64,000 nucleotides of DNA, taken from Escherichia phage Eryne. The stretch lies in sequence record PQ529420; one strand, written 5' to 3'. This document shows, piece by piece, positions 69 to 1,955 of this stretch. The notes below the pieces were generated by a model that saw nothing but the letters and a program-made list of their open reading frames with translations, had not been told where the DNA came from and did not search any database. Position numbers and translations under genes: made by a program. How positions within the stretch are numbered: position 1 is the first letter of the stretch; the number at the start of each line of letters is the position of its first letter.

Positions 69-1955
69 ATGTATCCTATTCCTTTATTTATGTCAACAAC
101 ATCAGCTTCAGTAGTAACAGCTACATCTATAACTACTTCCTCTATTGGTATTGCAATAGTTGGTAGTAAAAAGCAACTGACATACACAGTTACACCGGAA
201 GATGGTGCGTTATTTGATATAGCTTTTTCATCTTCAGATAATACCAAAATGGTTATAGATAATAGTGGTATGATGGAGTTTGTTGCCGAAGGTGGTTTTG
301 ATGCAATAATGACAGCTAAAAATAACTTAGGTGCTGTCTTAACTGATCAATCTGGTGGTTATGCTTCAGAATTAAGTGTGTACACTGAAAGTCTATCGTC
401 TATGGATGTAGGCACTACTCAACAGTTGGTTGCTACAATCAGTCCAGAAGGTGCTAAAGACCTTCCAGATATGGTAATTACATACACCACAACAGATCCA
501 GAAGTAGCTACTGTAAGCCCTACAGGATTAATAACTGCTCTTAAAGATGGCAATTGCCGTATAGGTTGTACTGCAACGTATCAAGGAACAGTTGTGGCCT
601 CTGATAGTTCTTATCTAGGTGTTAATGCTATTCCTGTTATTTCTAATGTAACAGCCGTGGCAAACAGTTATGGAGACGTTCGTGTTGCTTGGGATGTAAC
701 TGATCCTCTAGATGGTGATACTTATACTGTAGAAGTATTAGATTTAAGTGATAATAGTGTCCAGTGGACTACAACAACCACGAATACTTACGCCTACTTT
801 GATATCTCTGACTCTATTCCTCTTTATGGGTTTGCTCCAACATACCTTAAAATTAGCGTTAAGAGCACCAAAGCAGCACCCGTTATCTTTAATAACTCAA
901 TAGCTACAGATGATTCATTCATTAAAGAAGTTATTGTCTTTGCTGGACAAGATAACGTAAATGCACACTTTACAGAGCTATCTGGCGCAAATAAAGCAGC
1001 AATGAGTAGCACAACAGCCCGTAATGCATATGCTACGCAACGTGGTTTAGCAAATGCTGAAGTTCTCCCGTTAAATACAGCTTCTGGATCATCAGCAGCA
1101 GATAAATATGCTGACGATAAAGCTGGAACAGGTACACCAGACAACTACTGGTATGATCTGGATAACACAGCAGATGGGCCATGCTTAACTAACTTTATCA
1201 CTAAAGTCACACCTTATGCAAGTAAGGTTAAAGCGATTATTTGGGGACAAGGTGAAAATGACGCTGTATCAGCATCTTCTACTGTTGCAGGTAGGTACAG
1301 TAACACTACACGTTACCATGATGCTACGATAGCCATCTTTGATAAGATGCGTACAATAGTTCCTGCTTCTCAAGCAAAAATTGTTTGGCAGATTCTAGGA
1401 CGTTCTTATTTATATGGTGTAGAAGTTAATGGTGTGGATTGGCAGAAGTACAGAAATGTACAAAGAACCATCTCTACAGCACGTGATGATGTTATCATTG
1501 GTTCTTGGGTAGATGGTGCTGAACGTTACAGTGGCTATGTTTATGAAGAAGGTATTGATGGTCGTATCCATTATGTTTCTTCTGTATACCAAACAGCAGC
1601 TACAAAACTTGCTAAATCAGCAGCAGACGGTACAGACTTAACATCAACGTCACCTGTTTGGGTTGATATGTCTGTTCCAACAGGAGGAGCCGCTGTAAGA
1701 CAAGCTAACCAAGATGCAATTATCTCTTGGGAACCAGCAGGATATACTAAACATTACTTCCGAAATGTAAACGTCCTCACAGCAGCAATTCTTACAGAAC
1801 AAACCCTGGATACTAACACTTACACATTTACTTATGCAGATCAGGTTGAACAATATGGATTTGCAGCAGGTACAACAGTGTTTGATGTTGCACACTATGA
1901 TGCTGATAATGACGTGTTATCACCTCTTGTCAGATTTACAGTCAATGTTACATAA
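69..1955 (+). CDS. structural protein (tail fibre or decoration) with Ig-like Big_2 domain and putative SGNH/sialate-O-acetylesterase-like domain
   Basis: 628 aa; SD AAGGAG before ATG; Big_2-like segment (LITALKDGNCRIGCTATYQGT); esterase-like motifs (VFAGQDN, IIWGQGENDA); Ser/Thr-rich. Confidence 0.55.
   Translation: MYPIPLFMSTTSASVVTATSITTSSIGIAIVGSKKQLTYTVTPEDGALFDIAFSSSDNTKMVIDNSGMMEFVAEGGFDAIMTAKNNLGAVLTDQSGGYASELSVYTESLSSMDVGTTQQLVATISPEGAKDLPDMVITYTTTDPEVATVSPTGLITALKDGNCRIGCTATYQGTVVASDSSYLGVNAIPVISNVTAVANSYGDVRVAWDVTDPLDGDTYTVEVLDLSDNSVQWTTTTTNTYAYFDISDSIPLYGFAPTYLKISVKSTKAAPVIFNNSIATDDSFIKEVIVFAGQDNVNAHFTELSGANKAAMSSTTARNAYATQRGLANAEVLPLNTASGSSAADKYADDKAGTGTPDNYWYDLDNTADGPCLTNFITKVTPYASKVKAIIWGQGENDAVSASSTVAGRYSNTTRYHDATIAIFDKMRTIVPASQAKIVWQILGRSYLYGVEVNGVDWQKYRNVQRTISTARDDVIIGSWVDGAERYSGYVYEEGIDGRIHYVSSVYQTAATKLAKSAADGTDLTSTSPVWVDMSVPTGGAAVRQANQDAIISWEPAGYTKHYFRNVNVLTAAILTEQTLDTNTYTFTYADQVEQYGFAAGTTVFDVAHYDADNDVLSPLVRFTVNVT

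Follow-up and report, generated by a model that had tools for sequence, protein, structure and literature searches.

Organization of the locus

The window analyzed in this study is a 64,000-nucleotide (nt) stretch of Escherichia phage Eryne (sequence record PQ529420), and the gene in question is an open reading frame (ORF) on the plus strand, at positions 69 to 1955, that encodes a protein of 628 amino acids (aa) followed by a stop codon. A first-pass annotation made from the letters alone had placed this ORF, which starts with ATG, exactly and had described the product as a structural protein with an Ig-like segment and an esterase-like domain. The analysis presented here shows that the protein carries an SGNH-fold head related to the SASA family in which the catalytic serine is replaced by aspartate. 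With a probability that we put at about one half, the product is an accessory adhesin on the periphery of the tail or baseplate, whose head binds a decorated surface glycan and is probably non-catalytic.

The gene is the last plus-strand gene of the tail-fiber module. A ribosome-binding site (AAGGAG, positions 58 to 63, plus strand) lies 5 nt before the ATG, and a terminator-like hairpin (AAGCCCCTTCGGGGGCTT, positions 33 to 50, plus strand) followed by a T-rich tail is located 3' of the upstream gp151-like fiber gene. On the other side, a bidirectional intrinsic terminator (positions 1958 to 1983, both strands) lies between the ORF and a convergent minus-strand cluster that begins with homologues of gp154 and gp155 (DNA methyltransferase) and the DNA polymerase; corresponding terminators feature in the annotation of phage Paula. 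Bases 1 to 2500 of the window are 97 to 98.6% identical to those of Justusliebigvirus phages (muut, arall, VEcB, and others), i.e., phi92-like myoviruses of the subfamily Stephanstirmvirinae, which have a contractile tail. In Paula, the gene order is a homologue of the phi92 gp151 tail fiber, followed by the homologue of ORF 69-1955.

Existing names for the product vary. The whole protein is assigned by PHROGs to phrog_32204 ("tail protein"), with a further match of the C-terminal part to phrog_15324 ("tail sheath and receptor binding protein"). The GenBank names include "tail protein" and "lateral tail fiber protein", with "tail carbohydrate esterase" in ALITA and KMB37 and "non-contractile tail sheath" in KKE7M. 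In the literature on NGR-dependent phages, N4 gp65, and phi92, we found no discussion of ORF 69-1955 itself.

Domain architecture of the 628-residue protein

The protein begins with a conserved peptide, MYPIPLF... (aa 1 to 15; positions 69 to 113), which is common to a sister clade (MYPIPCF) and to the syntenic protein of Phapecoctavirus (MFPIPIF) and is a candidate attachment segment. It is followed by two tandem Big_2 Ig-like domains (aa ~16 to 187; positions 114 to 629), as seen in Pfam, in AlphaFold2 (AF2), and in the alignment with the Phapecoctavirus protein. The Big_2-type segment of the first-pass annotation was confirmed by the Pfam search of the whole protein (PF02368, two stretches, E = 9.7e-13, 48.3 bits versus a cut-off of 22.8). 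The Ig pair takes the shape of β-sandwiches in AF2, with a predicted local distance difference test (pLDDT) score of 80 to 91, and its Foldseek matches are Big_2 and Ig arrays. The same Pfam search found no recognizable virion-attachment domain.

The distal part consists of three domains: an FN3-like β-sandwich (aa ~190 to 266; positions 636 to 866), the SASA-type SGNH-fold domain (aa 272 to 535; positions 882 to 1673), and a C-terminal β-sandwich (aa 536 to 628; positions 1674 to 1952), all of them, like the N-terminal features, on the plus strand. The FN3-like domain is the first domain of a cassette common to schitovirus sheath proteins and is the one deleted in phi92; the C-terminal sandwich is related to the domains that are repeated at the C-terminus of N4 gp65. 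The full-length AF2 model, which was built from 7 sequences, is mediocre (pLDDT 69) and contains two Ig-like sandwiches, the FN3-like sandwich, an α/β domain, and a poorly modeled C-terminal β domain. Its Foldseek list is dominated by Ig arrays, and a domain-only model was used instead. Neither the full-length model nor Foldseek gave any sign of a trimeric fiber or tailspike. The protein is a chain of β-sandwich domains with one globular head.

Fold and family of the SASA-type domain

On the query alone, Pfam SASA (PF03629) scores 15.0 bits with the whole protein and 17 bits with the isolated domain, both below the cut-off of 24.8; of the profile matches anticipated by the first-pass annotation, Big_2 is above its threshold and SASA is not. 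Word-index searches, whether with a single sequence or a profile, returned only 7 to 8 close matches, none of the gp65 type, and exhaustive HMMER searching of 1.84 billion representative proteins was required. With a profile of aa 272 to 535, this search found 169 related clusters at E ≤ 1e-3. Of the 34 relatives that were aligned, 26 match Pfam SASA at E ≤ 0.01, with a lowest E value of 1.3e-16. The similarity of the query to SASA is therefore not due to chance, despite the sub-threshold score.

The AF2 model of the domain alone, built from the HMMER alignment, has a pLDDT of 95.5 and a predicted TM-score (pTM) of 0.92. Foldseek with this model retrieved N4 gp65 (TM-score 0.80), followed by many SGNH, GDSL, CE2, and PatB enzymes at a probability of 1.00. 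The domain thus has the three-layer α/β/α fold of SGNH proteins, and the lack of an esterase fold, which had been named as the outcome that would overturn the first-pass annotation, was not what structure prediction gave. Having no serine and scoring below the Pfam threshold, however, the protein is not a canonical SASA esterase. In a scan of IMG/VR, which returned three loci, all of known lineages, no Ig-stalk protein with a serine-bearing head was found.

The catalytic site

The GQSN block I carries the nucleophile serine in SGNH/SASA enzymes. All domain matches were aligned to the family profile, and the motif positions were tallied. The family consensus is GQSN in block I, W-x-QGE-x-D in block III, and (I/V)-H-(Y/F) in block V; block I is covered by 111 domains and is GQSN in 88 of them. 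The family profile pairs block I with the GQSNM of PDB entries 1zmb and 2apj. In the query, block I is VFAGQDN (aa 290 to 296; positions 936 to 956, plus strand), and the codon at positions 951 to 953 (GAT) places Asp295 at the position of the catalytic serine of the family. Block III (WGQGEND, aa 392 to 398; positions 1242 to 1262, plus strand; part of the longer motif IIWGQGENDA, aa 390 to 399) is kept, as is the block V histidine of RIHY (His501; positions 1569 to 1571, plus strand), which is a glutamine in part of the sister clade. Both motifs on which the esterase-like region of the first-pass annotation rested are thus present in an SGNH/SASA fold, although one of them, VFAGQDN, is a departure from GQSN rather than an instance of it.

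The remainder of the site is well preserved. Gly293, Asn296, the block II Gly340, Gly395, Glu396, Asn397, Asp398, and His501 are all kept. In serine-bearing members, 35 columns have a conservation of 75% or more, and the query differs at only one of them, by the serine-to-aspartate replacement. The same aspartate is found in the sister clade (Av-05, TH18-type phages, P0001 to P0005), which is 41 to 49% identical to the query and additionally lacks the block II glycine and Gln394, with the histidine gone in two of three aligned members. Aspartate at the nucleophile position occurs in these two clades and in one degenerate first copy of the gp65 type. A sequencing error was ruled out as its origin: Paula and phi92 also have GAT as this codon, and the residue is common to a sister clade of such distant identity. 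About one-fifth of the family domains have no serine at this position (Ala, Val, Met, Glu, or full degeneration, including both copies of N4-type gp65), and nucleophile loss therefore recurs in the family. In N4 gp65, copy 1 has GESQ together with QGDQD, and in copy 2 every catalytic motif is gone.

Relationship to N4 gp65 and to acetyl-esterases

The region of aa ~190 to 625 corresponds to the distal FN3/SASA-like/β-sandwich cassette of N4 gp65 (PDB accession numbers 9lc0 and 9yf4/5/t), and phmmer aligns the query with 9lc0_I at E = 4.9e-24. Proteins from the exhaustive search are 35 to 41% identical to this region over ~420 to 450 aa (best E = 2e-93, P0014), and BLAST over aa 193 to 624 matches the NCTSP-type proteins P0013 (3e-78) and P0015 (9e-79), in both of which the cassette forms the C-terminal ~440 aa. 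The identity to the distal cassette of P0013, P0015, and the likewise NCTSP-type P0017 is 35 to 40% over ~420 to 440 aa. Most of the cassette relatives are non-contractile tail sheath proteins of the schitovirus type (NCTSP), which consist of NCTSP_N, a TIM barrel, FN3, the SASA-like domain, and the sandwich. Unlike these, the query has neither NCTSP_N (PF23844) nor the NCTSP TIM barrel (PF23845) and carries an Ig stalk at its N-terminus; the two missing domains are found in gp65, P0010 to P0013, P0015, P0017, and a separate gp142-like protein of Justusliebigvirus. Block I also differs, being GQSN in P0015, P0017, and other close NCTSP relatives, GQAN in P0013, GESQ in N4, and GQDN in the query. 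Furthermore, gp65 sheathes the short tail tube of a podovirus together with its partner gp64, whereas the query genome is that of a contractile-tailed myovirus, and the query does not belong to the sheath class. In PMC13434306 and PMC5862860, N4 gp65 itself is described only as a receptor-binding sheath protein; the contact with the tail tube is made by D8 and that with the plug protein gp53 by D9-D10 (PMC13434306).

In N4 (minus strand; gp64, L002:3758-5011; gp65, L002:5044-9192), the TIM-barrel profile is divided between both proteins: aa 374 to 416 of gp65 match profile positions 4 to 46, and aa 109 to 407 of gp64 match positions 60 to 347. In addition, aa 16 to 78 of gp64 show a weak likeness (E = 0.004) to the block V end of the SASA-like domain, which copy 1 of gp65 lacks. 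These matches suggest that the gp64:gp65 heterodimer completes the split domains.

Compared with SASA/CE6-type acetyl-esterases (1zmb, At4g34215 [2apj], Escherichia coli NanS [3pt5], and SIAE [8f9r]), the query has aspartate in place of serine, scores below the Pfam threshold, and has its domain between the β-sandwiches of a phage tail protein. The tailspikes G7C gp63.1 (PDB accession number 4qnl) and those of Moo19/B2 belong to a different SGNH subfamily. These tailspikes are described as trimers in which the Ser-His-Asp triad is intact and for which O-antigen deacetylation has been demonstrated (literature cited in PMC10408124 and PMC13434306). The query, which has no serine and looks like a monomeric string of domains, is not one of them. 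The first-pass annotation was right on the domain composition, Ig-like plus esterase-like, and its interpretation is supported in part. The O-antigen deacetylase activity that it raised is not supported, because the catalytic serine is aspartate, the esterase-like domains of N4 gp65 are degenerate, and there is no sign of a trimeric fiber or tailspike.

Modularity of the locus

The Paula allele and the syntenic protein of a neighboring genus illustrate how the distal part of the protein varies. The Paula allele (L001:14069-16888) encodes 939 aa, in which the equivalent 628 residues are followed by 311 further C-terminal residues that match nothing in Pfam. The C-terminal β-sandwich is strongly divergent between Paula and the window, with a synonymous divergence (dS) of 1.27, which indicates that the distal end was exchanged by recombination. 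In Phapecoctavirus ukendt, a syntenic 890-aa "tail protein" (YP_009986904; L007:2714-5386) follows the gp151-like fiber. Its N-terminal peptide (MFPIPIF) and its tandem Big_2 domains, at 62% identity, correspond to those of the query, but it has an RCC1-like β-propeller (one RCC1 repeat above the Pfam cut-off) instead of the FN3, SASA-like, and sandwich domains; its head also gives a weak, sub-threshold match to a BspA-type leucine-rich repeat. The N-terminal part of the query has a history different from that of the distal cassette. Because the Phapecoctavirus heads differ and the Paula distal end is swapped, the locus is best read as a conserved stalk with exchangeable heads, as would be expected of a host-interaction module.

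A 516-aa homologue with the canonical GQSN and a smaller form of the cassette is encoded in Castellaniella sp. (JAUCCV010000002; L005:10001-11551), two small genes 3' of the gpJ-like central fiber gene of a lambda-like prophage. The FN3-SASA-sandwich cassette is therefore also found in siphovirus tail-tip regions.

Conservation and the broken copy in phi92

More than 55 phage records carry the gene intact, and phi92 is the broken exception among the records listed. In the pairwise comparison of the window with Paula, the ratio of non-synonymous to synonymous divergence (dN/dS) is 0.2 for the whole gene and 0.06 for the SASA-type domain, the latter from 10 synonymous and 2 non-synonymous changes. 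The SASA-type domain is under purifying selection.

In phi92 (NC_023693, 91320-92982; L003:16321-17983), the copy is broken into two genes, of which gp152 corresponds to aa 1 to 198 and gp153 to aa 335 to 628; a 225-nt deletion takes out the FN3 domain, and there are two frame changes. The surviving parts are 97 to 100% identical to the window protein. Neither gp152 nor gp153 is mentioned in the 2026 cryo-electron microscopy study of the phi92 virion (PMC13450770), according to which phi92 still builds normal tails. The gene is dispensable in phi92.

Proposed function and alternatives

We propose that the protein is laid out as beads on a string, in which the N-terminal peptide and a stalk of two Big_2 domains would present the FN3/SASA-like/β-sandwich cassette. 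With aspartate in place of the nucleophile serine, the head would no longer be a canonical acetyl-esterase, and the former active-site pocket may bind an acetylated or otherwise decorated surface glycan reversibly, which would aid adsorption on some hosts. The position of the gene and its homologues point to incorporation of the product into the virion.

Several observations weigh against this proposal. The oxyanion-hole residues and the histidine are kept, and catalysis could equally have been retained, with Asp295 as a non-canonical nucleophile or a general base. The head could also be structural rather than glycan-binding, by analogy with the protein-protein contacts of gp65. The low dN/dS of the domain rests on few changes, as given above. 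Finally, we found no experiment or proteomics placing the protein in virions, and no original proteomics are included in the BME3 paper.

If catalysis were retained, the protein would be an active, virion-borne carbohydrate O-acetylesterase directed at the O-antigen, the capsule, or an enterobacterial common antigen (ECA)- or NGR-type glycan, with Asp295 acting as the nucleophile or as a water-activating base by His501. The confident SGNH/SASA fold, the strong purifying selection on the domain, the retention of every other conserved catalytic-site position, the canonical GQSN of closely related sheath-type proteins, and the "tail carbohydrate esterase" label of two GenBank records are consistent with such an enzyme, and the occurrence of the aspartate in two clades that are only 41 to 49% identical argues for selection on that residue. 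On the other hand, the defining serine nucleophile is gone, and we know of no SGNH or SASA enzyme with an aspartate nucleophile. The sister clade has the aspartate in the absence of the block II glycine, Gln394, and in part the histidine, which is hard to square with aspartate-based catalysis, and the SASA-like copies are degenerate in the nearest solved homologue, N4 gp65. We consider an active esterase unlikely, though not negligibly so.

About as unlikely, in our estimation, is a purely architectural part of the tail or baseplate, in which the SASA-like and sandwich domains would serve for protein-protein packing with no host ligand. The PHROG family label "tail protein" would suit such a part, as would the second SASA-like copy of N4 gp65, which has lost all of the catalytic motifs. 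However, the query has neither the NCTSP_N domain nor the TIM barrel of gp65-type proteins, and its head domains are exchanged between genera and alleles, which is typical of host-interaction modules and not of core structure. Adhesive decorations exposed on surfaces, moreover, typically have Big_2 Ig-like stalks. The D8 and D9-D10 contacts of the closest solved relative, a sheath subunit (PMC13434306), would favor packing if the cassette corresponds to those domains; the normal tails of phi92 (PMC13450770), in which the gene is dispensable, point the other way.

That the product is instead a soluble late protein, freed at lysis to bind or modify host glycans, is very improbable. In favor of it, terminator-like hairpins flank the gene on both sides, and neither proteomic evidence nor, in Pfam, a recognizable virion-attachment domain was found, but the gene lies on the late strand inside the tail-fiber module, its N-terminal peptide is kept across genera while the heads vary, and the characterized homologues and the prophage context are all those of tail proteins.

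Relationship to NGR recognition

The NGR glycan is needed by the Justusliebigvirus phages Bas60 to Bas62, by Vequintavirinae, and by N4 (PMC8669472, PMC11990801, PMC11984140). According to a 2026 preprint, NGR recognition in myoviruses resides in a short domain holding the motif GMSHY that is common to N4 gp65 and phi92 gp142-type fibers. We confirmed GMSHY in gp65 (aa ~412), where it immediately precedes copy 1 of the SASA-like domain, and also in the gp142-like protein of Paula. The motif is absent from ORF 69-1955 and from the whole window, and the ORF was rejected as the published NGR-binding element. Among the matches listed, no record of Vequintavirus, which also uses NGR, matches the SASA part.

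The gp142-like protein of Paula (L001:3252-5327) contains Calx-beta, NCTSP_N, and a complete NCTSP TIM barrel. Modules that make up a single sheath protein in schitoviruses are thus divided in Justusliebigvirus between two proteins, the gp142-type protein and the product of ORF 69-1955. The two might cooperate as the myovirus counterpart of the device by which N4 recognizes its receptor, in which the serine-less head would be a second, lectin-like element for NGR or for its exporter NfrA; we regard this extension of the adhesin proposal as a long shot, less probable than either an esterase or a packing role for the head. The common cassette ties the receptor-binding sheath protein of the podovirus N4 to two separate proteins of NGR-dependent myoviruses, and this link offers a handle for mapping the gp65 modules that matter in receptor recognition.

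Interest in the phi92-like phages, both in research and in application, stems from the very broad range of hosts that they recognize in a multivalent manner. The components with which they adsorb have been catalogued mainly in phi92, where this gene is broken, and a probable receptor-facing protein of the genus has been largely overlooked. Should the head be a dead esterase that serves as a lectin, the name "tail carbohydrate esterase" would mislead both host-range prediction and phage engineering, and the protein would be a tractable case of the conversion of an enzyme into a binding module among phage receptor-binding proteins.

Other features of the window

In the convergent cluster, the gp154 homologue (positions 1991 to 2422, minus strand) and the DNA methyltransferase, a gp155 homologue (positions 2379 to 3110, minus strand), share a 44-nt overlap that is also present in phi92 and Paula. 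The DNA polymerase ORF (positions 5308 to 7887, minus strand) encodes 859 aa, the same as in Paula, and phi92 gp159 is annotated at 3315 nt; gp159 seems to have an insertion of roughly 245 codons relative to the polymerase of the window and Paula. No tRNA genes were found across the 64-kb window. The GC skew changes sign at position ~40000, and the large ORFs go from the minus to the plus strand at the same place. Four GenBank records of "Campylobacter phage A150/C3/A110a/A145" (MG065639, MG065656, MG065689, and MG065645) are ~98% identical to E. coli Justusliebigvirus across the region described here, and either their host label is wrong or the records are contaminated, as seems probable from this identity.

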